From NCBI GenBank assembly GCA_964412195.1, contig CAYPNP010000003.1, positions 160,386 to 224,385 on the forward strand: a stretch of 64,000 nt of DNA. Reading direction: 5' to 3'. Below the pieces are notes generated by a model. That model had not been told where the DNA came from. It saw only the letters and a list, made by a program, of their open reading frames with translations, and searched no databases. The position numbers and the translations under genes were made by a program. This stretch comes from an uncultured Acidobacteriota bacterium (GTDB lineage Bacteria > Acidobacteriota > JAAYUB01). Shown here one piece after another: positions 7,696 to 55,633 of this stretch (position 1 is its first letter; the number at the start of each line of letters is the position of its first letter).

Positions 7696-8907
7696 TCACG
7701 CCGGGGGGCAGATTTCCGCCAGCCGCCGAGCCAGCTCCAGTCCGAGGGCGTAGCACTTGGCGAGGTCATCCTCGTTGGGCACGTAGACGGCCATCACTCC
7801 GTCGGAGACCGGCTCTACGCCCATGTCCTTGAGCAATTCGTTGATCTGGGGCACCGCCTTGGGCGCCCAGCCGTAGGAACCGAACGCGGCTCCGAGGCGC
7901 CCCTTCGGCTTGAGCCCGCGCAGGTAGGTCAGCACGTCGGCCACAGTCGGGAACATCTGGCTGTTGAGGGTAGGCGAGCCCACCGCCAGGACGCCGGCCT
8001 CCAGCATCTCGGTGGCCACCTCGCTGCGGTGGCAGCCGCCCAGCGGCATCACCACCGGTTTGGCGCCACCCGCCTTGAGGCCGTCGGCGACCGCCCGGGC
8101 CATCCGGTCGGTGCTGCCCCACATCGTGTCGAACACCACCACCGCCTTCCGCGTGGGCGCCTGGGCGGCCCAGCGGGCGTAAAGCTCGAGGATCCGCTTC
8201 GGGTTGGCGCGCCACACCGGGCCGTGGTCCGGGGCGATCCGGCGGAAGTCGAGGCCGAGCTGGCCGACCTTTTCCAGCAGCTTCTGGACCAGGTTGGAGT
8301 ACGGCAGGAGGATGTTGGCGTAGTATTTGGCCGCTTCGTACTCCAGGACCCATGGGTCGACCTCGTCGTCGAAGCGCTGGCTGGTGGCCAGGTGCATGCC
8401 GAAGGCGTCCTGAGAGAAGAGCAGCTTCTCCTGTTCGAGGTAGGCGATCATGCTGTCGGGCCAGTGGAGCATGCGGGTCTCGTGGAAGAGCAGGGCGGTG
8501 TCTCCCAGCGGGATCCGGGTCCCATCCGCCACCGCCTCCACCGGCAGGTCGGGCCGGAAATGCTTCTGCAGCGCCTTGACGCCCATGGGCGAGGCGAAGA
8601 CCTTGTCGGGCCGGATGATGTCCATCACCTCCGGCAGGCAGCCGGTGTGGTCCAGCTCGGAATGGTTGGACACGATGTAGCGGACCAGCCGTGGATCGAC
8701 CACGGAGGCGATCCTGGCCAGCAGCTCCTCTTGGAATGGCTTCTTGACCGTGTCGATGAGGGTGACCGGGTCGCCCATCACCAGGAATGCGTTGTAGGTG
8801 GTGCCGCGCTCCGTCGCGTATCCGTGGAAGTCCCGGATGGCCCAGTCGATGGCGCCCACCCAGTAGACCCGGTCCGTGACGGGGATGGCTTTGAATACCT
8901 TTTCCAT
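7696..8907 (-). CDS. flavodiiron protein (FprA/ROO type: metallo-beta-lactamase-like diiron domain plus flavodoxin domain)
   Basis: 403 aa; diiron His/Asp ligand motif HSELDH-type; C-terminal flavodoxin-like region; RBS GGAGAG. Confidence 0.85.
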   Translation of the reverse strand: MEKVFKAIPVTDRVYWVGAIDWAIRDFHGYATERGTTYNAFLVMGDPVTLIDTVKKPFQEELLARIASVVDPRLVRYIVSNHSELDHTGCLPEVMDIIRPDKVFASPMGVKALQKHFRPDLPVEAVADGTRIPLGDTALLFHETRMLHWPDSMIAYLEQEKLLFSQDAFGMHLATSQRFDDEVDPWVLEYEAAKYYANILLPYSNLVQKLLEKVGQLGLDFRRIAPDHGPVWRANPKRILELYARWAAQAPTRKAVVVFDTMWGSTDRMARAVADGLKAGGAKPVVMPLGGCHRSEVATEMLEAGVLAVGSPTLNSQMFPTVADVLTYLRGLKPKGRLGAAFGSYGWAPKAVPQINELLKDMGVEPVSDGVMAVYVPNEDDLAKCYALGLELARRLAEICPPA

Positions 8908-9035
8908 TTCTTCAATACTCTCCGTTCAATTCACACACTCGACCGGGACGGACATCGGAAATCGGATTTCGGACATCGGCCTTTTACAGCCGATCCCCGA
9001 TGTCCGAAGTCCGATGTCCGACAATCGTGCCCGGG

Positions 9036-9581
9036 TTATGCCATCGCCGTGCCGCCGTCAAATCCCGTGCGCTCCTGCTCCCGGAACCAGGCGGCGGGAT
9101 CGGCCAGGAAGGCCTTCATCTCGGACAGGGCGGTGTGATGGCCCGTCTCTTCCTCGATCATCCGCTTGATGAATCCCTTTTCCACCTCCTCGGTGGCGGC
9201 CTTCAGCTGGTCCTCGTAGAAGCGGACCGAATTGAACTCGAAGGTGATGCCCACGTCGAGGGCCTCGAGGTCGCCGGTGCCGGCCTGGATGTTGTGGCCC
9301 TGGGCCGCGGCCAGGTCGCGGAACACCTTGCCGAGGTCGGCGTGGCCTTCGCCGAAGCTCTTCCACTCCTCGGACCAGGTGTGCTGGGTGTTCAGCTGCT
9401 CGTAGATCTTCATAATCCGCTGGACGTGGATGTCCTCGTCCTTCTTCAACATGGTGAATATCTTCACCCCGAGCTGGTTCTTGCAGGTGGTGATGGCCTT
9501 CTCGTAAAACGCCTTGCCCTTCTCCTCCATCTCGAGGGCGGTGCTCAGCATGGCCAGGGCGCGGTTGAAATGATGCGTCAT
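9036..9581 (-). CDS. rubrerythrin-family ferritin-like diiron protein (erythrin domain only), paralog D
   Basis: Two ExxH pairs (EEKGKAFY/DEDIH and EFNSVRFY/EETGHH) give a four-helix-bundle diiron signature. Confidence 0.7.
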   Translation of the reverse strand: MTHHFNRALAMLSTALEMEEKGKAFYEKAITTCKNQLGVKIFTMLKKDEDIHVQRIMKIYEQLNTQHTWSEEWKSFGEGHADLGKVFRDLAAAQGHNIQAGTGDLEALDVGITFEFNSVRFYEDQLKAATEEVEKGFIKRMIEEETGHHTALSEMKAFLADPAAWFREQERTGFDGGTAMA

Positions 9582-9593
9582 GGGATGACCTCC

Positions 9594-10094
9594 TTATGGT
9601 TTTTCCAGTTTCATCAACTCTTCGATCAGGGTGGTGATGTGGGACATCTCCTCCTGGATGATCTTGTCGACTTTGCCTCGGCCCCGGTCGACGGGGACCA
9701 TCTCCTTGATCCCGACATAGAAGGCGATGGACTCCTTCTCCAGGCCGATGGCCGTCTCGAGGATCTGGGCGAGGGATGTGCCGCGCGAGATCGTCTTGCC
9801 GGGGTCCTTGTCCGCGCGGAAGACGTGCTTGTCCACCCAGGCGCGGAGATACCTCAGCGCTTCCTGCCCGGGGTCGTTCAGCGTCTTGAACATGGCGTCG
9901 CCGATGAGGGACTTCCGGAGCGCCTGGAAGGTCATCTCGTGGACGTCCTCCATCGCGGCGAGCTTCTGCAGCAACTCGTTGGCCTGCGCCCCGACGGACT
10001 GGGCGGCGGCGGCCCGGTAGAACTTCGCGCCGTTGCGCTCGAATTGCTCGGCCATTTCAAAGATCTCGTCGGCATTCAGCAAACCGCTCATCAT
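9594..10094 (-). CDS. rubrerythrin-family ferritin-like diiron protein, paralog C
   Basis: ExxH pairs (ERNGAKFY/MEDVHE, LEKESIAFY/EEMSH); start MMSGLL chosen instead of the long N-terminal extension in the ORF track. Confidence 0.7.
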   Translation of the reverse strand: MMSGLLNADEIFEMAEQFERNGAKFYRAAAAQSVGAQANELLQKLAAMEDVHEMTFQALRKSLIGDAMFKTLNDPGQEALRYLRAWVDKHVFRADKDPGKTISRGTSLAQILETAIGLEKESIAFYVGIKEMVPVDRGRGKVDKIIQEEMSHITTLIEELMKLEKP

Positions 10095-10188
10095 AGCCTC
10101 CTTGTGCCAGGGTGCCGGGAACCGGCTGCCGGATCCCCTGGCCGGTTCCCGCCGCCCGAACGGGGCGGGCCGCTTCCCGGAAAGGTCT

Positions 10189-10641
10189 TCAGTTTTCGGG
10201 CTGGACAATCCGGTCGTACTCCAGCTCGAAACGCAGCTTGTGCTTGGCTTCCTCCTGGGCCAGCGCCAGCAGGGTCCGGCCAAGGGCCGGATCGGCGGCG
10301 CGATCGGCCATGTCGGTGTACAGCCGGTAGGCGGCCTTTTCCATCTTCATGGCCAGCACCAGGGCGTCCCCATAGGTCATATCCGGGGACGGATCGCCGA
10401 CGACGGTGTAGTCGGCGATCTTCAGGTCGAGGATCTTCTCGCGGGAGGGCTCCAGCGCCTGCCCCGCCTTGATCTGGAGCAGCTTGGCCTTGTGGCCCAG
10501 CTCCTCCCGGGCGAAATCCTCGAATGCCTGTTTCATCCAGGGTCGGTCCATTCTTTCGGCCAGCCCGTTGTAGAACACGGCCGAGGCGAGTTCCTTGCCG
10601 ATGGCGAAGTCCAGGATCTCGTCGACGGAGTTGAAATTCAT
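10189..10641 (-). CDS. rubrerythrin-family ferritin-like diiron protein, paralog B
   Basis: ExxH pairs (ELASAVFY/EELGHK, MEKAAYRLY/EEAKHK). Confidence 0.7.
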   Translation of the reverse strand: MNFNSVDEILDFAIGKELASAVFYNGLAERMDRPWMKQAFEDFAREELGHKAKLLQIKAGQALEPSREKILDLKIADYTVVGDPSPDMTYGDALVLAMKMEKAAYRLYTDMADRAADPALGRTLLALAQEEAKHKLRFELEYDRIVQPEN

Positions 10642-10653
10642 GGCGGCCCCGGG

Positions 10654-11151
10654 CTAGTACGGCCAGAACTGGTTGTCGTTCCAAACGCTTTCCTGCAGCG
10701 CCCGGTCCAGGGAGGCCAGCAGGTGGAGGTGGGTTTTCTCCCAATCGGCCAGCCACTGGTAAATTTCCTTCTCGACGGGATCGCCGGCGGTGGTCGCGCG
10801 GTCGGAGTAGAACCGCACGGCGCGGTCTTCCATGGCCATCGCGGCCGAGATCGCCGCCGCCTCGTAGCCCGCGGCGGCCACCTTGCCGCGGATCTCCCCG
10901 CTGATGACGGCCTCGGCGAAATCCTCGCCCTTGACGTGCTTGACGGGCTCAAACTGACCGCTTTTGCCCAGGCTCTTCATCTGGCGGGAGAGGATGTCGA
11001 TGTGGCTGTCCTCTTCCGCCGACATGGTCTGGAACACTTTTTTGATCGGGGCGCTGGTGGCTTCGCGGGCGTTGTGCTCGTAGAAGGCCTTGCCTTTCAT
11101 TTCCAGCAGGATCGCGCCTTTGAGGATCTCCATTGCCTTCGACTTGTCCAT
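10654..11151 (-). CDS. rubrerythrin-family ferritin-like diiron protein, paralog A
   Basis: ExxH pairs (EMKGKAFY/EEDSH, MEDRAVRFY/EKTHLH); start MDKSKAMEIL. Confidence 0.7.
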   Translation of the reverse strand: MDKSKAMEILKGAILLEMKGKAFYEHNAREATSAPIKKVFQTMSAEEDSHIDILSRQMKSLGKSGQFEPVKHVKGEDFAEAVISGEIRGKVAAAGYEAAAISAAMAMEDRAVRFYSDRATTAGDPVEKEIYQWLADWEKTHLHLLASLDRALQESVWNDNQFWPY

Positions 11152-11219
11152 GTGCCGTGCTCCTCTGCAAGTATTTGGGCCATTATAGCAGAGGCCGGCG
11201 CGGAGAGCCAACCGGGAAT

Positions 11220-11505: not shown

Positions 11506-12789
11506 ATGGAACACGACGAGATCCTGCACTGGCTGACAGAGACCGGCGAAGCGGCGCTGGAGCAGCTCTGGCGCCGGGCCGACGAAGTCCGGCGCCGGCA
11601 CGTCGGCGACGCGGTCCACCTGCGCGGGCTGGTGGAGTTCTCCAACCACTGCGCCCGGCAGTGCGGGTACTGCGGCATCCGGGCCGGCAACACCCGGCTG
11701 GCGCGCTACCGGATGAGCGCCGACGAGATCCTGGAGTGCGCCCGGCTGGCCGCCCGGCTGGGCTACGGCACGGTCGTCCTGCAGTCCGGCGAGGACCCCG
11801 GCACCCGGCGCGCCTGGATGGCGGACGTGGTCCGGCGGATCCGCGCGGAAACGGGGCTGGCGGTGACGCTCAGCCTGGGTGAGCGCAGCGACGCCGACCT
11901 GCGGGCGTGGCGCGAGGCCGGCGCCGGCCGGTACCTCCTGCGGTTCGAGACCTCCAACCCGGTTCTCTTCCGGAAGATCCACCCGCCCCGGCGCGGCCGC
12001 GGGAGCGACCGGATCGCCCTGCTGCGTCGGTTGCGAGGCCTCGGCTACGAGGTCGGCAGCGGGGCCATGATCGGTATCCCCGGCCAGACGTACGGTGACC
12101 TCGCCCGGGACCTCGAGCTGTTCAGGGAGCTGGACCTGGACATGATCGGAGTCGGGCCGTTCCTCCCTCATCCTGCTACGCCTCTGGGTCAACCAGAGGA
12201 CGCGGGGACGGGGGGACGGGGAGACGGGGGGACGAGCCGGATCGAACATCGAACATCGAACATTGAACATCGAACATCGAACTCAATCCGCGATCCGCAC
12301 TCCGCAAACCGGGAACTCACCACAAAGGCACAAAGAACACAAAGACAAGATTGGGATTCCAATTCGAAATCCGCGATCCGCAATCCGAGATCCGATGTCC
12401 GAGATCCGATGTCCGAAGATCGCACTCCGCATTCCGCACTCCGCACTCCGCATGATTCCGAACAGGTTCCCAACTCGGAATTGATGACCTACAAGGTGGT
12501 GGCGCTGGCCCGGCTGATCTGTCCGGACGCCAACATCCCCAGCACCACGGCGCTGGCCACGGTCAACCGGGAGTCCGGACGCGAGCTGGGTCTGCAGCGG
12601 GGCGCCAATGTCGTCATGCCCAACCTGACGCCGCCGCGCTACCGGGCCGGTTACGAAATCTACCCGGCCAAGGCCTGCCTCCAGGAAACGCCGGAGCAAT
12701 GCCACGGCTGCCTGCTGGCGCGCATCGCGTCCATCGGCCGGACCGTGGGCGAGGGGCCGGGGGAGTCTCCCCGATTCAGGAAGCGGTGA
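11506..12789 (+). CDS. radical SAM protein of the HydE/BioB/ThiH family carrying an in-frame insertion of about 97 codons of heptamer-repeat origin (function may be disrupted)
   Basis: EFSNHCARQCGYCGIR CX3CX2C radical SAM motif; HydE-like C-terminus ICPDANIPSTTALAT...GANVVMPNLTP; start MEHDEIL chosen because the first 27 codons of the ORF lie in repeat DNA. Confidence 0.65.
   Translation: MEHDEILHWLTETGEAALEQLWRRADEVRRRHVGDAVHLRGLVEFSNHCARQCGYCGIRAGNTRLARYRMSADEILECARLAARLGYGTVVLQSGEDPGTRRAWMADVVRRIRAETGLAVTLSLGERSDADLRAWREAGAGRYLLRFETSNPVLFRKIHPPRRGRGSDRIALLRRLRGLGYEVGSGAMIGIPGQTYGDLARDLELFRELDLDMIGVGPFLPHPATPLGQPEDAGTGGRGDGGTSRIEHRTSNIEHRTSNSIRDPHSANRELTTKAQRTQRQDWDSNSKSAIRNPRSDVRDPMSEDRTPHSALRTPHDSEQVPNSELMTYKVVALARLICPDANIPSTTALATVNRESGRELGLQRGANVVMPNLTPPRYRAGYEIYPAKACLQETPEQCHGCLLARIASIGRTVGEGPGESPRFRKR
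12190..12480. repeat. intragenic repeat module: CGAACAT, CCGAGAT/CCGATGT, CACAAAG and CACTCCG heptamer arrays inserted in frame in the radical SAM gene
   Basis: atcgaacatcgaacatcgaacattgaacatcgaacatcgaac translates as IEHRTSNIEHRTSN; ccgagatccgatgtccgagatccgatgtccga; cgcactccgcattccgcactccgcactccgca. Confidence 0.8.
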
Positions 12790-12794
12790 GACAC

Positions 12795-12945
12795 TGGATC
12801 GTCTCTCTCGTGTGAATTGATTCAATTGCGGATTGCGGATTGCGAATTGAACGGATTGCGGATTTCGGATTGCGGATTGAAACCTAGGCTTGTCTTTGTG
12901 TCCTTTGTGCCTTCGTGGTGAGTTCCCGGCTTGCGGCTTGAGGTT
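12795..12945. repeat. GCGGATT heptamer array plus CTTTGTG array, inverted relative to the intragenic module
   Basis: ttgcggattgcggattgcgaattgaacggattgcggatttcggattgcggatt; 12893-12930 is the reverse complement of 12311-12350. Confidence 0.7.
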
Positions 12946-13856: not shown

Positions 13857-15230
13857 CTAGCCCCGTCGCGGCCGGAATCCGTACTTCTCCATCTTGTAGC
13901 GCAGGTTCTTCTCGCTGATGCCCAGCGTCTCGGCGGCCCGGGTCTGGACCTGGCCGGCGTCCTCCAGCGCCTGCCGGATGCGGGCCTTCTCCAGGGCCTC
14001 CACGGCCTCCGGCAGGGGCATCTGCCGGATCTGCTCCTCCAGCGCATCGCCCGCCGCCGGCTTCAGACCGGGGAAATCCTCCGGCTGCAGCAGGGAGGAA
14101 CGGGTCAGCACCATCGCCCGCTCGACCAGGTTCTCCAGCTCGCGGACGTTGCCGGGGAAGTCGAATCCCATCAGCAGGTGGAGGGCGTCCCGGCTGATGC
14201 CCGTGACCGGGCCGGGGGCGCTGCGGGCGTACTTGCGGATGAAATGGTCCACCAGGGCGGGGATGTCTTCCTTGCGCTCCCGCAGCGGGGGCAGGGCCAG
14301 GGTGATGATGTTCAGGCGGTAATACAGGTCGCTGCGGAAGCGGCCCTCGGCGGCCAGGCGGGCCAGGTCCTGGTTGGTGGCGGTGATGAGGCGGAAGTCC
14401 GCCGGGATGTCCTGGTTGCTGCCGAGGCGCTGTATGATCCGCTCCTGGAGCACCCGCAGCAGCTTGACCTGCAGCCCGGCGGAGATCTCGCCGACCTCGT
14501 CCAGGAACAGCGTCCCCCCGGCGGCTTCCTCGAAACGCCCGATCCGGCGGCGGTCGGCGCCGGTGAACGCCCCCCTTTCGTGGCCGAAGAGCTCGCTTTC
14601 CAGCAGATTCTCGTTGAGGGCGGCGCAGTTCACCGCCACCATCCGGCCGCCGGCGCGGGCCGAGGCCTGGTGGATCGCCCGGGCCACCAGCTCCTTGCCG
14701 GTACCGCTCTCGCCCAGGATCAGGACGGTCGCGCTGGATTGGGCCGCCCGCAGGGCCAGGTTGACCAGCTCCTCCATGGCGTGGCTCTGGAAGAGGATCC
14801 CATCGAAACCGGCGCGGGGGGCGAGCTGCTCCTTGAGGCGGACGTTTTCCTCCAGGATGGTCTTCTGGCGGAGCAGGTTGCGGACCTTGATCTCCACCTC
14901 GTCCAGGTCGAGGGGCTTGGTCAGGTAGTCGGCGGCGCCCTTCTTCATGATCTCCACGGCCCGCTGCACCGAGCTGAAGGCGGTGAACAGCACGAAGGGA
15001 GTCTGTGGGTACTCATGACGGACGAACTCGAGGATCTCCTCGCCGGTCCCGTCCCCCAAGCGGAAGTCCGAGAGCACCAGGTCGGTCCGCTCCTCCTTCA
15101 GCTGAGCCTTGGCTTCGGCCACGGAGGCGGCGCCGCGGGCCCGGTAGCCCAGGTCGCGCAGGTGATCCACCAGCAGTCCGCGCTGGTTCGCTTCATCGTC
15201 CACCACGAGCAGGTTGAAGTCGCTTTCCAT
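13857..15230 (-). CDS. sigma54-dependent response regulator (NtrC/AtoC family: REC plus AAA+ plus Fis HTH)
   Basis: LLVVDDE receiver; GESGTGKE Walker A; GAFTGA sigma54-contact motif; C-terminal Fis-type HTH. Confidence 0.9.
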   Translation of the reverse strand: MESDFNLLVVDDEANQRGLLVDHLRDLGYRARGAASVAEAKAQLKEERTDLVLSDFRLGDGTGEEILEFVRHEYPQTPFVLFTAFSSVQRAVEIMKKGAADYLTKPLDLDEVEIKVRNLLRQKTILEENVRLKEQLAPRAGFDGILFQSHAMEELVNLALRAAQSSATVLILGESGTGKELVARAIHQASARAGGRMVAVNCAALNENLLESELFGHERGAFTGADRRRIGRFEEAAGGTLFLDEVGEISAGLQVKLLRVLQERIIQRLGSNQDIPADFRLITATNQDLARLAAEGRFRSDLYYRLNIITLALPPLRERKEDIPALVDHFIRKYARSAPGPVTGISRDALHLLMGFDFPGNVRELENLVERAMVLTRSSLLQPEDFPGLKPAAGDALEEQIRQMPLPEAVEALEKARIRQALEDAGQVQTRAAETLGISEKNLRYKMEKYGFRPRRG

Positions 15231-15236
15231 CCGGAA

Positions 15237-17333
15237 CTATCCTTCTCCGTCGATTTGAGTCGCCGGCGCCGCCGGAGTTCTTTCTCCGGGCGGATCCTCC
15301 AGGAGGTCGGAGGCAGGGACCGTCACCGTGACCACGGCCCCGCCGCCGGGCCGGTTGGCCAGGGCCAGCTGCCAGCCGTGGGCCTTCAAGATTTCCGCAC
15401 TCAGGCTCAGACCGAGCCCCGTCCCCTGGCGGCGCGTGGTGTAGAACGGTTCCAGGGCCCGCTGCAGCGCCTCGGGGGTGAACCCCGGCCCCGTGTCGGC
15501 CACCTCCAGACGCAGGCGGCTGTCTTCCCTCACCCACCCCAGGGTGATCTCGCCGCCGCCGTCGAGGTTGTCGATGGCGTTCTGAACGAGGTTGATCAGC
15601 ACCCGGAAGAGCTGGTCCTCGTCGGCTGAAAGTCGCAAGGAAACCTCCGCCGATTCCACCTGGAGGCGGATCCCGAGGCGTTCTGCAGTTTCGATGAACA
15701 TCGCCCGGACGCGCTCCAGCAGGGGCGGAAGCGCCACCGGCTCCCGGTGGAGCTGGACCGGCCGGGCGTAGATCAGGAGGTCCTCCACCAGCCGGTTGAG
15801 CCGGCGGGACTCCTCGTCCAGGACCGCCAGGGCGTTGCGGTTCCGCTCGTCCGCCACCGGATCCAGCCGCCGGCGCAACGTCTGCACCGACATGGAAAGG
15901 GCGTTGAGCGGGTTGCGGATCTCGTGGGCCACCGCCGCCACCAGCCGGCCGAGCGCCGCCAGGTGCTCCTCCCGGTGGCTTCTGTTTTCCAGCGCCTTCT
16001 GGCGGGTGACGTCCCGCAGCAGCAGCAGGCGCGCCGGCGGACCTCCGGGTTCTTCCGGGAACGCCTGGCAGCTGGCCAGGAAGAGCCGGTCCCGCCAGGA
16101 CAGGTAGACCGCCTCCGCCGGCGCCGCGGCGTCCTCCGACCGGCAGTCTTCCAAGGCGCCGGTCAGGGCGTGCGGCAGGGCGTCGCCGGCGCGGAGGCCC
16201 AGCTCGGACTCGGCCCGCGGGTTGGCCCGGAGGATGCGCCCGGTCTCATCGACCACCAGCAGGGACTCCACCATCCGCTGGGTGATCCGGTCGGACATGG
16301 ACAGGCTGCGGGCGTAGCGCGAGCGCAGGAACCGGTAGTTCTGGGCCGTGAAAATCAGGCCGAAGAGGATCCCGCCGCCGAGCAGGAGCGCCAGGCTCAT
16401 CCCGGCGTCCCGCCAGGCCAGCTCCCGCAGCCGGTCGTGGTAAAACGTGAGGTCCACGCCCACCCGGAACAGCGCCCGGTACCCCTCCTCCAGCTCGAAC
16501 GGCACCGCCCCTTCCAGCACCTCCCGGCCGCGATGGGTGGTGAAGCGGAAGGTCCGGCGGTTTTCGGCGAAAGCCTCGCGAAGCTCGGGCACGCTGCCGA
16601 TGGAGGCGACCTCCTCCACGCCCGGGGTGGCGCTGATGGGGCCGTCCTCGTCCTGGATGACCGCGTAGACGATGGAAGGGTTGCCGGCCAGGCGGGCCAG
16701 GGCCGGGCCCAGGCCGACCCGCTGCCGGTAGCGGTCGAGCTGCTCCGCCGGGGCAGTCACGACGATGGCGCCACCGCCCGGCCGCGCCACGGCGACGGCG
16801 AACCGGCGGCCTCCTCCGAACCGGGCTTCGCGAAAACCGATGACCAGGTCCGGGACGGTCCCGTCCAGGATGGGGCCGAGGATGTTCCGCCGCTCGGCCG
16901 TTTCCTCGCCGGATCCCGCGGGCGGGGGATCTCCGCTGGACAGGACGCGTCGGCCGTCCCGGTCGAAGAGATGAATCCGCTGGAGGTCGAACCGGGCCGC
17001 GACCGCTCCCAGCCGGGAGGCGGACAGGGGGCCTTCCCCGTCGAGGTGGGCGACGAAGCGGGCGGAAGCGAGCAGCCGGCGGGCGATCTCTTCCTGCAGC
17101 GCGTCGTAGGCGCCCAGGGAGGCCGTGGCGCTTTGGATCAGGGGCTCGGTCAGAACGGCCACGTTGTCCTGGAGGAGCCGCCGCAGTTCCCGCTCCGTGT
17201 TGCGGTAGTCGGAATACCCGTTCCAGGCCAGCAGCAGGGCGAGCGCCAGAAGGCCGGCCGAGGGGAGGATCCACCCGGCCGGGCGGGAGCCGTTCCCCCG
17301 CGGCGTCAGTGGGCGCTGGGTTCGGGCTGCCAT
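15237..17333 (-). CDS. sensor histidine kinase with about 290-aa periplasmic domain, PAS, HisKA and HATPase_c
   Basis: H-box AHEIRNPLN; N and G boxes (LVQNAIDN, GTGLGLS); two transmembrane segments; start MAARTQRPL is uncertain and the ORF-track start at 17960 is rejected. Confidence 0.75.
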   Translation of the reverse strand: MAARTQRPLTPRGNGSRPAGWILPSAGLLALALLLAWNGYSDYRNTERELRRLLQDNVAVLTEPLIQSATASLGAYDALQEEIARRLLASARFVAHLDGEGPLSASRLGAVAARFDLQRIHLFDRDGRRVLSSGDPPPAGSGEETAERRNILGPILDGTVPDLVIGFREARFGGGRRFAVAVARPGGGAIVVTAPAEQLDRYRQRVGLGPALARLAGNPSIVYAVIQDEDGPISATPGVEEVASIGSVPELREAFAENRRTFRFTTHRGREVLEGAVPFELEEGYRALFRVGVDLTFYHDRLRELAWRDAGMSLALLLGGGILFGLIFTAQNYRFLRSRYARSLSMSDRITQRMVESLLVVDETGRILRANPRAESELGLRAGDALPHALTGALEDCRSEDAAAPAEAVYLSWRDRLFLASCQAFPEEPGGPPARLLLLRDVTRQKALENRSHREEHLAALGRLVAAVAHEIRNPLNALSMSVQTLRRRLDPVADERNRNALAVLDEESRRLNRLVEDLLIYARPVQLHREPVALPPLLERVRAMFIETAERLGIRLQVESAEVSLRLSADEDQLFRVLINLVQNAIDNLDGGGEITLGWVREDSRLRLEVADTGPGFTPEALQRALEPFYTTRRQGTGLGLSLSAEILKAHGWQLALANRPGGGAVVTVTVPASDLLEDPPGERTPAAPATQIDGEG

Positions 17334-17902
17334 CGGATGGTTTCCGGGATCGAGTAGTCCGCGGGGAGGTCGGCCTTGCCGAGGCCGGCTTGCAGCAGCT
17401 TGCCCTCCAGGCGCAGGTTCTGGCCGCCGCCCTGGAGCAGGTACCACCGGATCAGGCTGCCGCCCGTGCGGGACCAGGTGAAGAAGATGGTCAGCCGCCG
17501 GCCGTCCTCGAGGGAGTACTGGGCCGGGGCAGACACGGGGAACTTGCCGTCCAGTTCCTTCTGCTGCTCCTTGGGAAGGCCGGGAATGTCCGACGCTTTC
17601 CTGACCAGCCGGGTTTCCGAATCCGGCGGCAGGCGGAGGGCCGTGTTCATGCTGCCACGGAGGGATTCCGCAAGCTTCTGGAGCTGGCGCTGCTGGTGGC
17701 GGGCCTGGAACCGGTCGTCGATGCCGTCGCCGTCCTGGTCCACGTAAGGCTGGGAGTCCCAGCCGCCCCGGTACTGCCCCCCGCCGTGCGAACCGCCCCC
17801 CCCGCCCCCGCCCCCGCGGCGCCCCTGGCCCGGAAGGTCCGCCACGGCCGTCCCGAGCAGGGCCACCATCACCAGGATTTGAGGGAAACTTCGTCTCATC
17901 AT
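17306..17902 (-). CDS. periplasmic accessory protein of the two-component system (DUF4390-like?)
   Basis: Signal peptide MMRRSFPQILVMVALLGTAVA; Gly-rich linker; overlaps the kinase start. Confidence 0.5.
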   Translation of the reverse strand: MMRRSFPQILVMVALLGTAVADLPGQGRRGGGGGGGGSHGGGQYRGGWDSQPYVDQDGDGIDDRFQARHQQRQLQKLAESLRGSMNTALRLPPDSETRLVRKASDIPGLPKEQQKELDGKFPVSAPAQYSLEDGRRLTIFFTWSRTGGSLIRWYLLQGGGQNLRLEGKLLQAGLGKADLPADYSIPETIRWQPEPSAH

Positions 17903-18248
17903 GCCTCCCCGATCTTACCATTGAATGGATTCGCAATAAAGGTGCCAGTCTGGAGTCCATCCGCGCCGCCGGTGCGCGACGGCGGAAATCCCCGTCCGGC
18001 GGAAGGTTCGGCGGGGGCGGTCGGGCGCTGGAGGACCTACGGCGGGTTCCGTTTCGGCAAAATGGACGAATGCGGGGGGCAGAAAAGTCGAATTTTCATC
18101 TCATTTAAAATCAATTAAATACGGGGTTGATGCGGGCGAACGCACGGTCGCCGTGCGATTTTGCCCCCCGATCCGGCCTCTATCGGGCGATGGCGCAACT
18201 AACTCGTATATTTCTAAATTTCAATGAATTAAGTTGTATATGACAGAT

Positions 18249-18264
18249 TGGCACGGGCGGTGCA
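18249..18264 (+). promoter_or_regulatory. sigma54 -24/-12 promoter TGGCACG-N4-GTGCA
   Basis: tggcacgggcggtgcaa fits the TGGCACG-N4-TTGCA consensus, about 40 nt upstream of the ATG at 18307 and next to a divergent sigma54 activator gene. Confidence 0.55.
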
Positions 18265-18306
18265 ATACAGGGCGGCGTGCAAGAGAAAATTTCTTGGAGG
18301 TGTTCG

Positions 18307-19218
18307 ATGAAACGTTCTTATCTCACCCTGATCCTGATGGCGTTGATGGGCTCGGGCGCATTCCTGGCCGCACAAACCGGCCCGATCCACCTGGATCCCT
18401 CCCAGTTGCACCATTTTGAGGGCATGGTCGCCTCGATCCAGGCCGCGCCGGGCCATGGCACTCCCCTCTTCGTCCTGCGGACCGCGGACGGCGGCGAGGT
18501 GACCTTCCAGACCGGTCCGTACTGGTTCTTCGACGTGGCCGGCTTCATCCTGGCGGAAGGGGACGATGTGACCGTGGACGCGTTTGCTTCCATCGATCCT
18601 GCCATTTCTTTATATTACGCCGCGCGCATCCAGAATTTGGACACCGGCGCGCTGGTCGTCCTGCGCGATGATGCGGGCGTGCCCCAGTGGACCGGCGGGC
18701 GGCAGTTCGGAGGGCAGGGGAACGGCGGCCCGTCCGGCCAGAACCCCGGCAACGGCAGCGGCGGTGAAGGCGGGCAGGGCCAAGGGAACCCCGGAGGCGC
18801 CGGCGATTCCGGCGGCGGCTCGGGTAACGGTTCCTGCGACGGCTCCGGGCGGGGCGGGGCGCGCGGCAACGGACAGGGCGGCGACGAAAACGGCCCGTCC
18901 GGCCCGGCCGGCTATGCTCTCGAGAATATCCAGGTGGTGACGGGCACGGTGGCCGTCACGTCCCTGGCGCTGGGACAGAAAGACTCCTCGTTCATCCTGA
19001 TGGACGGTTCCGGCGCTGCCTGGGATATCCGTGTCGGCCCGATCTGGTTCCTCGCGGCCAACGGCTTCACCCTCAGCGTCGGCGACGGCGTGGAGGCCAC
19101 CGTGGCCAGCCGCGCTTCCGACCCGCTGCATCTCTTCGCCCTGCAGATCCGGAACCTGACCACCGGCGCCACCATCGTCCTGCGGGATGACAACGGCTTC
19201 CCGCTGTGGCGGCGCTGA
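18307..19218 (+). CDS. secreted protein with two tandem homologous domains of about 90 aa joined by a Gly/Asn-rich linker
   Basis: RBS GGAGG then ATG; signal peptide; internal duplication FQTGPYWFFDVAGF...LVVLRDDAGVPQW and RVGPIWFLAANGF...IVLRDDNGFPLW. Confidence 0.6.
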   Translation: MKRSYLTLILMALMGSGAFLAAQTGPIHLDPSQLHHFEGMVASIQAAPGHGTPLFVLRTADGGEVTFQTGPYWFFDVAGFILAEGDDVTVDAFASIDPAISLYYAARIQNLDTGALVVLRDDAGVPQWTGGRQFGGQGNGGPSGQNPGNGSGGEGGQGQGNPGGAGDSGGGSGNGSCDGSGRGGARGNGQGGDENGPSGPAGYALENIQVVTGTVAVTSLALGQKDSSFILMDGSGAAWDIRVGPIWFLAANGFTLSVGDGVEATVASRASDPLHLFALQIRNLTTGATIVLRDDNGFPLWRR

Positions 19219-19280: not shown

Positions 19281-19691
19281 ATGAAAAAGATCCTGGCAAT
19301 CCTGAGTGTGATGATGGTGTTCGGAATCGCGGCCCTGGCGGGCGATGCGCCGGCGGCGGCCCCGGCCCAGACCCAGGCGGCGGTGCAGACCCCGGCCCAG
19401 GCGCAGACCCAGGCCGTCGCGCAGGCGCAGGCCAAGGCCCGGCAGGGCACCCGGTACGTCGACGCCAACGGCAACGGGGTGTGCGACAACTTCGACAACG
19501 GGACGCCGCAGGGGCGGATAAACCGGGGCGGCCAGGGCAAGGCCGGCCAGGGGGCCGGAAACGGCGTCAAGGCCCGGGACGGTTCCGGCAGCGGTCAGCG
19601 CCACGGGTGGGGCAAGGGTGGCGGCGCCGGACGCGGCACCGGCCAGGGCGGCGGCCAGCGGCTCCGCGACGGTTCGTGCGGGAAGCGGTAG
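19281..19691 (+). CDS. small secreted Gly/Gln-rich protein
   Basis: RBS AAAGGAGGAAGACC then ATG; signal peptide MKKILAILSVMMVFGIAALA; low-complexity QAQ and GQG repeats. Confidence 0.5.
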   Translation: MKKILAILSVMMVFGIAALAGDAPAAAPAQTQAAVQTPAQAQTQAVAQAQAKARQGTRYVDANGNGVCDNFDNGTPQGRINRGGQGKAGQGAGNGVKARDGSGSGQRHGWGKGGGAGRGTGQGGGQRLRDGSCGKR

Positions 19692-19840
19692 GCGCGCTGA
19701 CGCAGCGGAACACTTCAGCCACGGTTCTCAAAACCCCGTCCTTCCGGACGGGGTTTTCTTATTGCGAGAGAATGCCGAATCGAAAAAAAAAGGCTTGCAA
19801 TATTCTGAGCATATGCTCATAATAAGGTCCGGAGGTTGCG

Positions 19841-20245
19841 ATGCCCAGGCCCTGCTGCCGGAAACGGATATCCGCAGAACCGCTGCTGCCGGTGTTTCAG
19901 CCGGCGGGAATCCCCGCGGCCAGCCTGTCCGAAGTGGTCCTGACCCTGGACGAGTTCGAGGCGGTCCGCCTGGTGGACCTGCTGGGGCTCTACCAGGAGG
20001 AAGCCGCGGCGTGGATGAACGTCTCCCGGCCCACCGCCGGGCGGGTGCTGGAGCGGGCCCGCCGGAAGATCGCCGACGCGCTGGTCCACGGCCGGATCCT
20101 GCGGATCGAGGGGGGCGCCGTGGAACGGTTCCCGGAGAACCCGGCGGAATGCCCCCGCTGCCACTGCCCCCTGCTGCCGGGGGAGAAACCGGCCGGGGCC
20201 TGCCTGCGGTGCCGGCGGCGGGGCGGCGGGCAAAGGAACACCTGA
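19841..20245 (+). CDS. DUF134 (UPF0251) family predicted DNA-binding protein
   Basis: LTLDEFEAVRLVDLLGLYQEEAAAWMNVSRPTAGRVLERARRKIADAL sigma region-4-like HTH; C-terminal CPRCHCP...CLRCRRR cysteine cluster; RBS GGAGG. Confidence 0.7.
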   Translation: MPRPCCRKRISAEPLLPVFQPAGIPAASLSEVVLTLDEFEAVRLVDLLGLYQEEAAAWMNVSRPTAGRVLERARRKIADALVHGRILRIEGGAVERFPENPAECPRCHCPLLPGEKPAGACLRCRRRGGGQRNT

Positions 20246-20267
20246 AATGCGGAAAGGAGATCGAACA

Positions 20268-20678
20268 ATGAATGTTTGCGTACCCATCAACCAGGACGAA
20301 GGACTGAACAGCCCGGTGTGCGGCCATTTCGGCTCCGCGCCGGCTTTTCTGCGGGTCGATACGGAGTCCGGTTCCTGCGAAGTCATCTCGAACAACAACA
20401 GCCATCATGCCCACGGCATGTGCCAGCCGCTCCAGGCGCTGGCGGGGGCCTCACCCGACGCGATCATTGTCGGGGGCATCGGCATGGGCGCGCTGCTCAA
20501 GCTCAACGCCGCCGGGATCCGTGTCTTCCTGGCCGTCGCGCCGACCGTGGCGGAGAACCTGGCCGCCCTGCGGGAGGGCCGGCTGTCGGAGGCCCGTCCG
20601 GAGACGTCCTGCGGTCATCACGGCCACGGCGGGGAGCATGCCCACGGCGGCGGCTGCGGCCACGGCGGGCACCACTGA
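20268..20678 (+). CDS. NifX/NifB-type dinitrogenase FeMo-cofactor-binding-domain protein with His/Gly-rich C-terminal tail
   Basis: MNVCVPINQDEGLNSPVCGHFGSAPAF start of the Nitro_FeMo-Co fold; tail CGHHGHGGEHAHGGGCGHGGHH; RBS GGAAAGGAG. Confidence 0.75.
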   Translation: MNVCVPINQDEGLNSPVCGHFGSAPAFLRVDTESGSCEVISNNNSHHAHGMCQPLQALAGASPDAIIVGGIGMGALLKLNAAGIRVFLAVAPTVAENLAALREGRLSEARPETSCGHHGHGGEHAHGGGCGHGGHH

Positions 20679-20703
20679 TTTCCTCTTCGACTGGAGGTCC
20701 GGG

Positions 20704-21084
20704 ATGGAAGGCGAGACCCACTGGCAGTGGCGCCTGCGGAAGGCGCGGGAGCTGGCCGCGGCGCTGGAGCCCACCCGCTTCGGGGTGCGGGCCCTCTACC
20801 TGATCGGCAGCACGAAGAACGTCACCGCCGGCCCCGAGAGCGACCTCGACCTGGTGGTGCATTTCGCCGGGACCGGGGAACAGCGCGCGGACCTGCTGGA
20901 CTGGTTCCGGGACTGGGACGCGCGGCTGGTGGCGGAGAACGAGGCGCGCACCGGACGGCGCTGTGACACCATCCTGGACCTCCACCTGGTCAACGACGAG
21001 GAAGTCGCCCGCCGCGGCGGCTTCGCCGTGCGGATCGGCGCGGTGGACGATCCCGCCTGGCCCCTCCCCCTGGGGGGAAATTAA
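20704..21084 (+). CDS. nucleotidyltransferase-domain protein (minimal Pol-beta-type NTase)
   Basis: GS...DLDL motif LYLIGSTKNVTAGPESDLDLVVHF; RBS GGAGGT. Confidence 0.65.
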   Translation: MEGETHWQWRLRKARELAAALEPTRFGVRALYLIGSTKNVTAGPESDLDLVVHFAGTGEQRADLLDWFRDWDARLVAENEARTGRRCDTILDLHLVNDEEVARRGGFAVRIGAVDDPAWPLPLGGN

Positions 21085-23423: not shown

Positions 23424-23539
23424 GACCGGAAGTTTCTTCTCCTCTTCGGCTCCCGCGCCTCCCGGGGGGCACGACAAAGGCGGGATTATACGCCTCGTTT
23501 TCCAAAAATCAAGTAGGAGGATTGGCATGAATTATGACC

Positions 23540-23930
23540 GGTGAGGGGTGACGGGTGACGGGTGACCGATAACCGGTGCCGTCGCTGTTCGTGCTCGTAA
23601 TCGTAATCGAAACAATGAATTACACACAGAATCGCAGATTCCGCGGCGTTTTCATGAGCAATGCGTTGCCACAAGCAAGCGGGAAGTACCCTGCCGGTCG
23701 GGGTACCTCCATCCTGCCGGTTTTGAGGTCGTGCCCGTTGAGCGGGATCGTTCTGATGGTCGTGTACGCAGCTGGATCTCGGGTCTCGGGACTCGGGGCT
23801 TGGAATCAGGGCTCCGGATCCAGCCCCAAGCCCCCGGTCTCCTGTACTGAGCTCCGAGCCCCGAGCCCCGAGCCTCCAGCCTCGAACCCCGAGTCCCCAA
23901 ACCCGAGCCTCGTGGTAGAATACGCCGGCC
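23540..23930. repeat. composite intergenic repeat region: CCGGTGA array, CGTAATC array, TCGGGGTACCTCC core and CCCGAGC array
   Basis: gtgacgggtgacgggtgaccgataaccggtg; gtgctcgtaatcgtaatcg; 23698-23710 tcggggtacctcc; ccgagccccgagccccgagcc. Confidence 0.75.
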
Positions 23931-25892: not shown

Positions 25893-28714
<2,822 letters not shown>

Positions 28715-28900
28715 TTGCGAATTGCGAATTGCGAATTGAGTCCGTGCTTACTCGAAAATAGAAACTTCCGATCGTACTCGTCGATCGTAATCGTGCTCGT
28801 AATCGTAATCGTAATCGCAACAATCAATTACACGCAGAGACGCAGAGTCCGCAGAGACAATCCCTAACGCGGATGAACACGGATTCCCGCCGATCCGGCC
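28715..28900. repeat. composite repeat: GCGAATT array, CGTAATC array, CGCAGAG array
   Basis: ttgcgaattgcgaattgcgaattg; cgtgctcgtaatcgtaatcgtaatcg; cacgcagagacgcagagtccgcagagac; homologous to the module at 23580-23650. Confidence 0.75.
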
Positions 28901-38699: not shown

Positions 38700-38900
38700 T
38701 TCAAACGCTCGAAGAGGGGCTCGGGACTCGGGGCTCGGGATTCGAGGCTTGGGTCTGGGTGCATCGTATTCCAAACCCAAACCCTGCATATCGATCTCCG
38801 CATACTCAACTCCGACATATTCCAACCCCAACCTCCAACCCCGAGCCCCGAGTCCCGAGCCCCGAACCCCGAGTCCCGAGACCCGCCTCGACTCCTCATG
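38700..38900. repeat. CCCGAGC/CCCGAGT heptamer arrays in inverted orientation around an AT-richer core
   Basis: gggctcgggactcggggctcgggattcgagg ... ccccgagccccgagtcccgagccccgaaccccgagtcccgagacc. Confidence 0.75.
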
Positions 38901-41317: not shown

Positions 41318-41490
41318 CAATTGCGGATTGCGGATTGCGGATTGAGGATTGAACCGCAAACCGCGCAAAGGATGCAAAGCGGAATTCAACGCTGATCCAC
41401 GCAGATTGATTATGATCTGATATGATCATTTAACAGGTTTGGATCATAAAGATCATAAAATATCCGCGTGAATCTGCGTTGAATGAGATC
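41318..41490 (+). mobile_element. composite MITE-like dispersed element, copy 1: GCGGATT array, CAAAG-rich segment, about 100-bp AT-rich core with terminal inverted repeats
   Basis: Core ttcaacgctgatccacgcagattgattatgat...ggatcataaagatcataaaatatccgcgtgaatctgcgttgaat is homologous over its whole length to 55441-55545 (second copy, opposite orientation). Confidence 0.75.
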
Positions 41491-50792: not shown

Positions 50793-51448
50793 TGCGCAGG
50801 AAGACTCTTACCCTATGGCGGACGGTGTGGCTGGCGGCCCTGCTGGCGGCGGGCGGTGGCGCGGCGGGCGCGGCCGGGCTGTCGCTGCGGGACCGGGTCG
50901 TGGCCGACGTGGCGGGGGAGCCCGTCACCCTCCGCCAGGTGCTCATCCTGGCCAGCCTGGAAGCCGGCCGGAAGGTCGACCCGTCGGAAGGGGGGCTCGT
51001 GGCGGCCGCGGTCCAGCGGGAGATCACCCAGGTCATCATCATGCGGGACATCGCCCGGAATCCGTCCTACGAGGAGGAGAAACCCGACGAGGCCGCGATG
51101 CGGCAAGCCCTCGAGCAGAAGTGCGGCGGGCCGGAGGCATTGCGCCGGCTGCAGGAGGAGCTCCAGCTGAAAGACGAGACGCTCGAGAGCTTCCTGCAGC
51201 GGCAGGCCCTGGCGGTCGCCTTTGTCCGGCTGCATTTCAATCCGTTCGTCTATGTGTCCGAGGAGGAGGCCCGGAAATACTATGCGGAGGTGTTCCTGCC
51301 CCGCCTCGGCGCCGGCGCCGCGCCGCCGGACTTTGAGAGCGTGCAGGCGAAAATCGTGGAGATCCTGCAGCAGCGCAAGATCAACGCCGAGTTCGACCAG
51401 TGGCTGGAGCGGCAGAGGAAGGAACTTCGAGTCAAGATCATTGAATGA
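50792..51448 (+). CDS. periplasmic protein downstream of bamA (SurA-N/Skp-like chaperone?)
   Basis: ATGA overlap with the bamA stop; signal peptide; helical; position equivalent to skp in Omp85 operons. Confidence 0.45.
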   Translation: MRRKTLTLWRTVWLAALLAAGGGAAGAAGLSLRDRVVADVAGEPVTLRQVLILASLEAGRKVDPSEGGLVAAAVQREITQVIIMRDIARNPSYEEEKPDEAAMRQALEQKCGGPEALRRLQEELQLKDETLESFLQRQALAVAFVRLHFNPFVYVSEEEARKYYAEVFLPRLGAGAAPPDFESVQAKIVEILQQRKINAEFDQWLERQRKELRVKIIE

Positions 51449-51560
51449 TTGCGAATTTCGAATTGCGAATTGCGGATTGTGGATTGCGGATTGCGGATTT
51501 TAAATTTCAAATCCTCAAACTCTTTTTCTCTGAATCCACCCCGTCCACCCGTCCACCCCG
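51449..51560. repeat. GCGAATT/GCGGATT heptamer array plus CCACCCG array
   Basis: tgcgaatttcgaattgcgaattgcggattgtggattgcggattgcggatt; ccaccccgtccacccgtccaccccgtccactctgtccacccggtcc. Confidence 0.75.
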
Positions 51561-55439: not shown

Positions 55440-55630
55440 CCATTCAACGCAGATCCACGCTGATCTATTATGATTAATTAGGATCATTTAAAAGGTCTGG
55501 ATCATAAATGATCTTAAAAAGTCTGCGTCCATCTGCGTCGAATTCCCCTTTGCGTCCTTCGCGCCTTTGCGGTTCGATTCGAAATTCGCAATTCGCAATC
55601 CGCAATCCGCAATCCGCAATCCGCAATCCC
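55440..55630 (-). mobile_element. composite MITE-like dispersed element, copy 2 (inverted relative to copy 1)
   Basis: ttcaacgcagatccacgctgatctattatgattaattaggatcatttaaaaggtctggatcataaatgatcttaaaaagtctgcgtccatctgcgtcgaat followed by cgcaatccgcaatccgcaatccgcaatcc. Confidence 0.75.
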
Positions 55631-55633
55631 CAA

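Follow-up and report, generated by a model that had tools for sequence, protein, structure and literature searches.

What switches on the gene at position 18307 of this stretch of DNA, which encodes a secreted protein of two similar domains, and is the two-component system encoded divergently beside it the switch? The stretch, hereafter the window, comprises 64,000 nt from an uncultured Acidobacteriota bacterium (contig CAYPNP010000003.1 of assembly GCA_964412195.1, positions 160,386-224,385 of the forward strand). A first-pass annotation had placed a sigma-54 promoter ahead of this tandem gene, at 18249-18264, as part of a self-contained envelope sensing-response module. At promoters of this kind, the closed complex of the sigma-54 holoenzyme at the -24/-12 element opens only with ATP hydrolysis by an enhancer-bound activator.

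It now appears quite probable that the genes on both sides of this promoter form a self-contained, sigma-54-dependent two-component divergon that regulates itself. Such a circuit, in which a sigma-54 two-component divergon regulates itself and has a periplasmic output, is textbook in its logic, and the promoter call itself is therefore unsurprising. The interest lies in the controlled output, a large and apparently uncharacterised family of proteins that shares its domain with the magnetosome proteins MamS and MamX.

Two outward-facing promoter elements

A search of both strands of the whole window for the consensus TGGCAC-N5-TTGCW, allowing at most one mismatch, returned only two matches, and both lie in one 404-bp intergenic region, facing outward, each toward the gene that adjoins it:

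18249-18264, plus strand: sigma-54 -24/-12 element TGGCACGGGCGGTGCA, one mismatch, upstream of the 18307 gene
17947-17932, minus strand: second sigma-54 -24/-12 element TGGCACCTTTATTGCG, one mismatch, facing the accessory-kinase-activator operon

In TGGCACGGGCGGTGCA, the GG at 18250-18251 and the GC at 18262-18263 keep the required spacing of exactly 10 nt. A ribosome-binding site (GGAGG, 18296-18300) precedes the ATG at 18307, and the gap between the element and this ATG is 42 nt; the close upstream placement given by the first-pass annotation thus stands, with its distance of 40 nt corrected. Transcription is predicted to start near 18275, which would leave a 5' untranslated region of about 32 nt. 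The minus-strand element TGGCACCTTTATTGCG, absent from the first-pass annotation and newly added by this analysis, ends 29 nt before the start codon (17902) of the first gene of the opposite operon, and the transcription start predicted for it lies near 17921. Both elements are read as sigma-54 promoters, with their dependence on sigma-54 and on the activator being a prediction from sequence.

Could the motif at 18249-18264 be a chance match, or the binding site of another protein, with the gene expressed from a sigma-70-type promoter? The count of matches over the whole window is not elevated (2 against 1.39 expected after shuffling), and the AT-rich tract upstream of the element could in principle hide a weak -10 element. 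However, the sigma-54 signal lies in the placement of the matches and not in their number, as both share one intergenic region even though the count does not exceed expectation. Among 12 related loci in which the tandem gene is linked to a gene for an enhancer-binding protein, a -24/-12 element with at most two mismatches is found 27-63 nt upstream of the tandem-gene ATG in 11, and in the twelfth (L017) the element occupies the same alignment column with three mismatches. The background in the related loci is about 0.0085 matches per 100-nt one-strand window, so that the recurrence of position, orientation and core in all 12 argues strongly against chance, and it spans three gene orders and tandem-protein identities down to about 26%. 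The pairing with a second, oppositely facing element argues in the same direction. This minus element appears as an invariant GCAAnAAAGGTGCCA block in L016, L017 and L018 when their intergenic regions are aligned with that of the window (alignment A6); an equivalent site stands 21 nt before the kinase gene in L012, and a weaker candidate for its counterpart is present in L002. Further, a simple scan predicted no sigma-70-like promoter in the 404-bp region, and an activator carrying the GAFTGA loop is always encoded next door. A chance origin of the element is hence regarded as exceedingly improbable, and the proposed promoter at 18249-18264 is borne out by its single mismatch, its correct GG/GC spacing and its conservation across related loci.

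A cassette conserved through three gene orders

Related loci were sought with the tandem protein family; alignment A1 proved too diverse, and the narrower alignment A3 led to three genome loci. The cassette loci fall into three arrangements:

Divergent layout as in the window: L001 (identical to the window), L002, L016, L017, L018 and the distant L012
Colinear order of tandem gene, small protein, accessory protein, kinase and activator: L004, L006, L009, L010 and L011
CHASE2 kinase, activator, FecR-domain protein and tandem gene: L007/L008

In all three arrangements the tandem gene is found next to a sigma-54 kinase/activator pair, with the identity of the tandem protein falling to 26-32%, while the flanking genes are entirely different from one cassette locus to another. 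It is because of this complete difference in the flanks that the cassette can be considered self-contained, and the description of a self-contained sensing-response module is a fair one, given that the tandem gene remains tied to the two-component system through three gene orders.

The same linkage bears on whether the -24/-12 element, although real, might be served by an activator encoded elsewhere, with the neighbouring two-component system controlling other targets. Enhancer-binding proteins can act on distant promoters, and the site assigned to the adjacent activator is a candidate only. Yet the tandem gene and the kinase/activator pair stay adjacent through three gene orders, at 26-32% identity and amid changing flanks, and the window holds one activator gene only. 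Service by a non-adjacent activator is therefore judged very unlikely. Conversely, three distant, membrane-anchored members of the tandem family (L013-L015, about 25-27% identical) have neither an activator nearby nor a sigma-54 element, and sigma-54 control thus tracks the presence of the activator and not the domain family as a whole.

Two of the loci carry additional sites of this kind. In L012 (7787-8902), a third sigma-54-like site, TGGCCGCAGGCTTGCA (8902-8887, minus strand), stands ahead of an operon encoding an 84-aa secreted, Gly/Gln/Arg-rich, Cys-containing protein, a 137-aa protein with a single MamS_MamX domain and a CcmH-family protein; this operon is convergent with the tandem gene and adjoins the divergent sigma-54 kinase/activator pair. 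In L007, a one-mismatch sigma-54 site TGGCACGGTGGATGCA (4723-4738) lies inside the 3' end of the CHASE2-kinase gene, about 70 nt before the activator gene, which is apparently split in L007 and intact in L008.

The intergenic region between the promoters

If one activator serves both promoters, where might it bind, and what else lies between them? The features of the intergenic region that bear on this are:

18053-18093, no strand assigned: candidate enhancer (upstream activating sequence, UAS), TTCG-N10-CGAA and two direct repeats, the best-conserved block outside the promoters in A6
18109-18121, plus strand: integration host factor (IHF)-like site AATCAATTAAATA, one mismatch to WATCAANNNNTTR, within a tract of about 75% A+T
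18219-18231, plus strand: IHF-like site TTTCAATGAATTA, one mismatch, in a tract of about 78% A+T directly upstream of the -24 element

Within the candidate enhancer, both TTCG-N10-CGAA (18053-18070) and the direct repeats GGCAAAATGGACGAAT (18056-18071) and GGCAGAAAAGTCGAAT (18078-18093), which are spaced by 22 bp, are conserved in A6. Repeats of the form G(A/T)CGAA(T), with a spacing of 21-22 bp, stand in the corresponding position in L002 and the colinear L004-type loci. Elsewhere in the window, the repeat motif is met at one site only (59804), which fails to match at three positions. About 110-130 bp separate the block from the minus promoter and about 160-190 bp from the plus promoter, distances that suit a shared enhancer and that fall within the range of about 80-200 bp of UAS elements; the block is proposed as a candidate binding site of the activator. 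The first-pass annotation had suggested a scan of 18000-18240 for inverted-repeat enhancer sites, and such a scan does yield a perfect palindrome, CGCACGG-TCG-CCGTGCG (18141-18157). The palindrome was rejected as the enhancer in favour of the conserved 18053-18093 repeats because it is not conserved in L016-L018.

As for the IHF-like sites, the AATCAA core of the first (18109-18114) is invariant in A6, with L017 matching the IHF consensus perfectly, and the TCAAT core of the second (18221-18225), together with its AT-rich tract, is kept in all orthologous loci. A riboswitch or small RNA as the explanation of these conserved blocks is unsupported, since no Rfam family was found in the window.

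The sensor operon

The operon behind the minus promoter encodes three proteins, all on the minus strand:

17306-17902, minus strand: secreted accessory protein, 198 aa; signal peptide, Gly-rich stretch, DxDGDGIDDRF, helix and beta-rich C-terminal region
15237-17333, minus strand: sensor histidine kinase, 698 aa; first transmembrane segment, periplasmic domain, second transmembrane segment, PAS-like region, HisKA and HATPase_c
13857-15230, minus strand: NtrC-type enhancer-binding response regulator, 457 aa; receiver with D55, AAA+ domain and C-terminal Fis-type helix-turn-helix

By domain content, the kinase and the activator constitute an NtrC-family two-component system. The activator, whose gene is the only one of its kind in the window, matches Response_reg (3.3e-21), Sigma54_activat (1.9e-69), AAA_lid_14 and HTH_8 in Pfam and carries the GAFTGA loop (nt 14573), as the proposal of a divergent NtrC-type enhancer-binding protein had implied. 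The kinase matches HisKA (2.3e-16) and HATPase_c (3.5e-24), and its H-box HEIRNPL, like the receiver D55 of the activator, can be read in the translation. Hydropathy places the transmembrane segments at about aa 18-38 and aa 310-332, with a periplasmic domain of about 270 aa between them; the large domain claimed for this kinase is thus real, and its size is to be revised from about 290 aa. In this domain Pfam sees only a weak sCache_3_2 match (6.2e-5). Judged against equivalog cut-offs in NCBIfam, the kinase reaches 167.2 bits for ZraS (cut-off 479) and the activator 417.4 bits for ZraR (cut-off 760); AtoS and AtoC, respectively, score higher, and these scores are also below their own cut-offs.

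The accessory gene is the first of the operon, and its product, a 198-aa protein with a signal peptide, agrees with the periplasmic accessory protein that had been annotated there. The start of the kinase gene overlaps the 3' end of the accessory gene by 28 nt, and the gene call is the same in L001. On account of this overlap the accessory protein, a candidate, is probably a co-sensor with the kinase. Its orthologues are encoded directly before the kinase gene in L002, L004, L006, L009-L011 and L016-L018, and indeed the gene is found upstream of the kinase in every locus with this kinase type. The DxDGDGIDDRF motif, which is of the Dx[DN]xDG type, is invariant among the orthologues. A word-based homologue search gave only 5 hits; the protein matched no family in NCBIfam or in Pfam (to E up to 10), and a sequence search of the PDB with the accessory family and the kinase periplasmic domain returned nothing meaningful.

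The secreted output proteins

What, then, is being switched on? The plus promoter faces two genes for secreted proteins:

18307-19218, plus strand: secreted tandem OB-fold (oligonucleotide/oligosaccharide-binding fold) protein, 303 aa; signal peptide, OB-fold 1, linker, OB-fold 2
19281-19691, plus strand: small secreted Gly-rich protein, 136 aa; signal peptide, YVDANGNGVCDNF motif and Gly/Gln/Arg-rich tail ending QRLRDGSCG

The longest open reading frame in the frame of the tandem gene begins at GTG 18277; ATG 18307 is preferred as the true start, given the ribosome-binding site ahead of it and the MKR with which every homologue begins. The signal peptide of the protein is cleaved after about LAAQ. 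The two domains (aa 29-128, nt 18391-18690; aa 205-303, nt 18919-19215) are 39% identical to each other (E = 1e-17), an internal duplication already suspected when the gene was annotated as encoding a signal-peptide protein with two homologous domains. Structure prediction had been suggested at the same time, and in an AlphaFold model built with a 25-sequence alignment both domains are modelled with a predicted local distance difference test score (pLDDT) of about 90-96, and both show the element order E-E-E-H-E-E (beta1-3, helix, beta4-5). Foldseek against the PDB returned only OB-fold proteins, all weakly (E about 1e-3 or higher), among them tandem-OB proteins such as Teb1 and Deinococcus SSB, and also the anticodon domains of LysRS, CcmE and IF-1. 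On these models both domains are OB-folds. A sequence search of the PDB with the tandem family gave only matches to the low-complexity linker and no sequence-related solved structure.

By sequence, the protein falls with the MamS/MamX group. The NCBIfam model of MamS matches aa 231-302 (model positions 111-182; E = 7.6e-8, 32.7 bits against a cut-off of 200), and among 25 family members MamS is matched by 9, MamX by one and ExtJ by one (4.3e-7). PF26390 (MamS_MamX) is precomputed for nearly all homologues, faintly for the window protein. The local Pfam scan to E up to 10 gave no PF26390 match, and that copy of Pfam apparently lacks the model; the domain assignment therefore rests on the precomputed hits and on NCBIfam. 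In the same local scan, none of the three secreted proteins matched any Pfam family, BOF, CpxP and ZraP-type families included. The protein is accordingly described, from its sequence and the predicted fold, as a secreted tandem MamS/MamX-type OB-fold protein, which is neither MamS itself nor a Pfam BOF protein. The earlier statement that the outputs have no known function needs to be qualified to this extent: the domains are not orphans but OB-folds of the MamS/MamX type. The family is large: 5,400 cluster representatives were retrieved by a profile search at E ≤ 0.001 and 199 at E ≤ 1e-30, mostly of 250-300 aa with both domains. Those members that have a name are called 'hypothetical protein', and wherever the source is stated it is a metagenome-assembled genome of the Acidobacteriota. 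A His/Cys/Met metal site inside the OB domains was also considered and is not supported by the conservation pattern.

Between the two domains lies a Gly/Gln/Asn-rich linker of about 70 residues (aa 133-202), disordered in the model, with a conserved CDGSGRG motif. Its sequence GSCDGSGRGG (18790-18830) resembles the LCDGSGKG and RLRDGSCG (19650-19691) of the small secreted protein family (P0182-P0186), and given this resemblance the linker may be functional rather than a simple spacer.

The small secreted Gly-rich protein follows the tandem gene as had been annotated, and the two genes are probably co-transcribed since they are separated by a gap of 62 nt with no predicted terminator. An orthologue stands directly after the tandem gene in L004, L006, L009-L011 and L016-L018. 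The family is a loose one, with (F/Y)VDAxxDGVCDN(Y/F) and RLRDGSG/C motifs and with PF20130 in one member, and a word-based homologue search again gave only 5 hits. The Dx[DN]xDG motif is known as a general Ca2+-binding motif in many structural contexts (PMC3123361).

A proposed circuit and its possible role

What sequence and comparison show are the promoters and how they are conserved, the domains and fold of the proteins and the linkage of the genes; from these we infer who binds where, the autoregulation and the existence of a signal. A periplasmic signal would be received by the kinase through its extracytoplasmic domain of about 270 aa, probably together with the 198-aa secreted protein, and the kinase would phosphorylate the NtrC-type activator. 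The activator could then assemble on the conserved repeats around 18053-18093 and, with the AT-rich IHF-like sites bending the DNA, remodel the sigma-54 RNA polymerase at the two outward-facing promoters. The promoter at 18249-18264 would express the tandem OB-fold protein and the small Gly-rich protein, while that at 17947-17932 would re-express the accessory protein, the kinase and the activator in a positive autoregulatory loop. It is because the sensor operon has its own conserved sigma-54 promoter that the system is probably autoregulated.

For the role of this circuit, inducible binding or handling of metals or other cations in the periplasm is put forward tentatively, as a possibility with less than even chances. 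The OB-fold protein and the small Dx[DN]xDG/Gly-Cys-rich proteins would serve to bind or buffer a metal or another cationic species, with the accessory protein signalling occupancy to the kinase in the way that ZraP informs ZraS. Three lines of evidence favour such a role. Firstly, other two-component systems respond to Fe(II), Ca2+ or cationic peptides by strongly inducing periplasmic OB-fold proteins: PA14_04180 is induced about 4000-fold by Fe(II) or cations (PMC4358008), CarO by Ca2+ (PMC10574481) and VCA0732 by polymyxin (PMC5636140). Secondly, calcium-loop-like motifs and Cys/Gly-rich ones are found in the accessory and small proteins. Thirdly, the L007 locus abuts a CzcB-type efflux operon (OEP/CzcB/ACR_tran, L007:1-2483).

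Several findings weigh against parts of this picture. The window encodes no RpoN box; the enhancer is assigned by conservation only, and the arrangement of its half-sites varies between clades; and for the accessory protein an alignment of 6 sequences gave an unusable structure model (pLDDT 49). The small protein is absent from L002, L007 and L012, which makes it inessential to the module and leaves the tandem OB-fold gene and the sigma-54 two-component system as the core; its copy in the window, moreover, has DANGNG and not a strict Dx[DN]xDG. The OB domains are without conserved His, Cys or Met, their invariant residues being Gly, Pro, Trp and Arg, and a classical side-chain metal site in the fold is therefore unsupported. 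Finally, the cytochrome b/Rieske setting of the tandem genes in L013-L015 speaks for a role linked to redox chemistry no less than for ion buffering. The lack of conserved His/Cys/Met in the OB domains and the relatives in cytochrome b/Rieske operons are the reasons for keeping both a redox and an envelope-stress role open.

In the redox case the circuit would be the same, with the output taking part in periplasmic electron transfer or in the redox chemistry of metals and metalloids, and with the OB-fold serving as an adaptor or substrate-binding partner for cytochromes, insoluble substrates or metalloids. In three unrelated contigs of lower G+C content (L013:7001-10901, L014:7001-11026 and L015:2421-6468), a distant tandem gene is the first of a cytochrome b/Rieske/dihaem cytochrome c operon, which suggests that the MamS/MamX domain is recurrently tied to respiratory complexes. 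One protein, P0029, has the domain fused to cytochrome c domains, and the family members matching ExtJ and MamX speak for the same link: in Geobacter, the small periplasmic protein ExtJ is encoded in the ext cluster together with Rieske, cytochrome b and multihaem cytochrome genes (PMC5877670, PMC6148476), and MamX has cytochrome-like domains and is proposed to be part of an iron oxidoreductase complex (PMC3905215). The sigma-54 site in L012, heading a small Gly-rich gene, a single-domain MamS_MamX gene and CcmH, fits as well. However, in the window, L002 and the L004-type loci the cassette neither contains nor adjoins a cytochrome, Rieske or haem-maturation gene; the tandem protein has no CXXCH and only one Cys; and the cytochrome-linked members, at about 25-27% identity, are membrane-anchored and without sigma-54 sites. 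A redox output is thus considered rather unlikely for this cassette.

A general envelope-stress response without ion specificity, again driven by the same circuit, is a further alternative. Here the OB-fold protein would bind antimicrobial peptides or cell-wall components in the manner of the BOF proteins YgiW, VisP and SipA, or act like the chaperone ZraP. The output is indeed a periplasmic OB-fold, and MamS has been modelled on YgiW (PMC3905215); under stress from polymyxin or cations, two-component systems target BOF proteins (PMC5636140, PMC4358008); and ZraP, a chaperone of the periplasm, is divergently controlled by sigma-54 (PMC4987338). On the contrary, the three secreted proteins show no BOF, CpxP or ZraP-type match, and the Dx[DN]xDG and Cys-containing Gly-rich motifs suggest the binding of ions rather than of peptides. 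We regard this possibility as unlikely.

A broader idea goes beyond the tentative metal or cation role of this one cassette. Given that MamX has magnetochromes, that ExtJ belongs to Geobacter conduit clusters and that tandem members head cytochrome b/Rieske operons, MamS/MamX-type OB-folds might constitute a periplasmic module of wide occurrence that deals with metal, metalloid or mineral species beside respiratory cytochrome complexes, the cassette being the first version with a dedicated sensor and switch. The idea is speculative and its chances are slim. If it were true, the cassette might control periplasmic metal sequestration or mineral nucleation with Gly/Cys-rich partner proteins, and would offer a regulator-linked route, outside magnetotactic bacteria, to the biochemical function of MamS and MamX. 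Our literature search found no paper on MamS/MamX-type domains outside magnetotactic bacteria or on their control by sigma-54. A conserved, dedicated sensor and switch implies a specific inducing signal, and the function of the domain should hence be experimentally approachable by reporter screens for the inducer. The cassette also draws attention to a possible tie of the domain to metal or redox chemistry in the periplasm of anaerobic Acidobacteriota; few regulatory systems of this phylum have been characterised.

Genomic surroundings

The neighbours of the cassette in the window include rubrerythrins, HydE, EamA, DUF134 and others, and no magnetosome genes. Downstream of the small protein, on the same strand as the tandem gene, the region 19795-21084 holds a DUF134 gene (19841-20245), a Nitro_FeMo-Co/NifX-like gene with a His-rich tail (20247-20678) and an NTP_transf_2 gene, with a sigma-70-like promoter predicted at 19795-19823, ahead of the DUF134 gene. 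The DUF134/Nitro_FeMo-Co pair is also found downstream of the cassette in L001, L016 and L017, and its co-regulation with the cassette by read-through is possible. The pair lies outside the conserved cassette (19841-20678); similar genes belong to the sigma-54-controlled orp cluster of Desulfovibrio.

On the other side, the minus strand of 7696-11211 encodes a flavodiiron-type protein (ODP and flavodoxin) and three rubrerythrin-domain proteins. This cluster, a typical oxygen and reactive oxygen species defence of anaerobes, is upstream of HydE, an EamA transporter and the cassette. The radical-SAM open reading frame at 11425-12789 matches HydE (1.2e-91) in two stretches; an in-frame insertion of about 85 codons (12198-12452) consists of short tandem repeats (GGACGGGG, ATCGAAC six times, AATCCGAGATCCGC and CGCACTC), and the frame remains open throughout. 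More generally, the window is dotted with arrays of 4-9 copies of 7-nt tandem repeats (ATTGCGG, GAACATC, GAGCCCC, CCCCGAG, AATCCGC and others), most of which are apparently intergenic. Examples are:

2327-2364: heptamer array
2453-2490: heptamer array
12825-12879: heptamer array
23535-23566: heptamer array
23849-23909: heptamer array
28714-28738: heptamer array
38839-38885: heptamer array
41320-41351: heptamer array
51448-51499: heptamer array
55583-55635: heptamer array

Similar arrays are found upstream of the cassette in L004 (6500-6680) and L006. They resemble the heptamer repeats described in cyanobacteria as short tandemly repeated repetitive (STRR) sequences.

Comparison with known systems

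How does the cassette compare with systems that are already understood? ExtJ of the Geobacter extHIJKL(MNOPQS) clusters is, like the tandem protein, small and periplasmic, and its NCBIfam model is the one matched by a member of the tandem family; the ext genes cluster with Rieske and cytochrome b genes (PMC5877670), as do the tandem members of L013-L015. However, ExtJ has a single domain and 104 aa, the window protein itself does not match its model, and a LysR-family regulator is found upstream of extHIJKL-homologous clusters (PMC6148476).

The likeness to MamS and MamX is one of domain. The second domain of the tandem protein matches the MamS model, and the OB-fold predicted for it is also the fold that published predictions give for MamS, modelled on YgiW, and for the C-terminus of MamX (PMC3905215). 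The differences are considerable, since the tandem protein scores far below the equivalog (32.7 against 200 bits), has a cleavable signal peptide in place of a membrane anchor, has two domains, lacks a magnetochrome and is encoded away from any magnetosome genes, in a host that is an Acidobacteriota metagenome-assembled genome from an anaerobic digester.

The systems of BqsRS/CarSR with PA14_04180/CarO, QseBC with YgiW and VC1639 with VCA0732/SipA share with the cassette a membrane kinase that senses cations or stress in the periplasm and, as the main output, a signal-peptide OB-fold protein (PMC4358008, PMC10574481, PMC5636140, PMC5053249). Unlike the cassette, their regulators are OmpR-type and sigma-70-dependent and their outputs are single-domain BOF proteins, whereas the output here has two MamS/MamX-type domains without a Pfam BOF match; the resemblance is one of fold and location only.

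ZraPSR, the zinc-responsive envelope-stress system of E. coli and Salmonella, is closer in its regulation. ZraR controls the divergent sigma-54 promoters of zraP and zraSR (PMC4987338), so that, as proposed here, one activator drives two divergent sigma-54 promoters from one intergenic region, one for a periplasmic protein and the other for the kinase/activator operon itself. ZraS and ZraR are also among the best NCBIfam matches of the kinase and activator, and the secreted proteins here are Gly-rich. The cassette differs in scoring far below the equivalogs (167 against 479 bits for ZraS, 417 against 760 for ZraR), in the lack of a ZraP/CpxP (LTXXQ) family match in Pfam (E up to 10) or NCBIfam, the output being a tandem OB-fold protein instead, in the extra secreted protein inside its sensor operon and in the much larger periplasmic domain of its kinase.

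In the layout of its control region, finally, the cassette comes close to the orp divergon of Desulfovibrio vulgaris. There the activator, OrpR, senses redox conditions as a one-component regulator, so that no two-component system is involved, and the orp products are cytoplasmic. The two divergent orp promoters nevertheless require sigma-54, OrpR and two IHF sites (PMC3897727), that is, one activator and two functional IHF sites between a pair of divergent sigma-54 promoters (PMC3897727, PMC8359166), and the two promoters, central repeat block and two IHF-like sites of the cassette match this layout.

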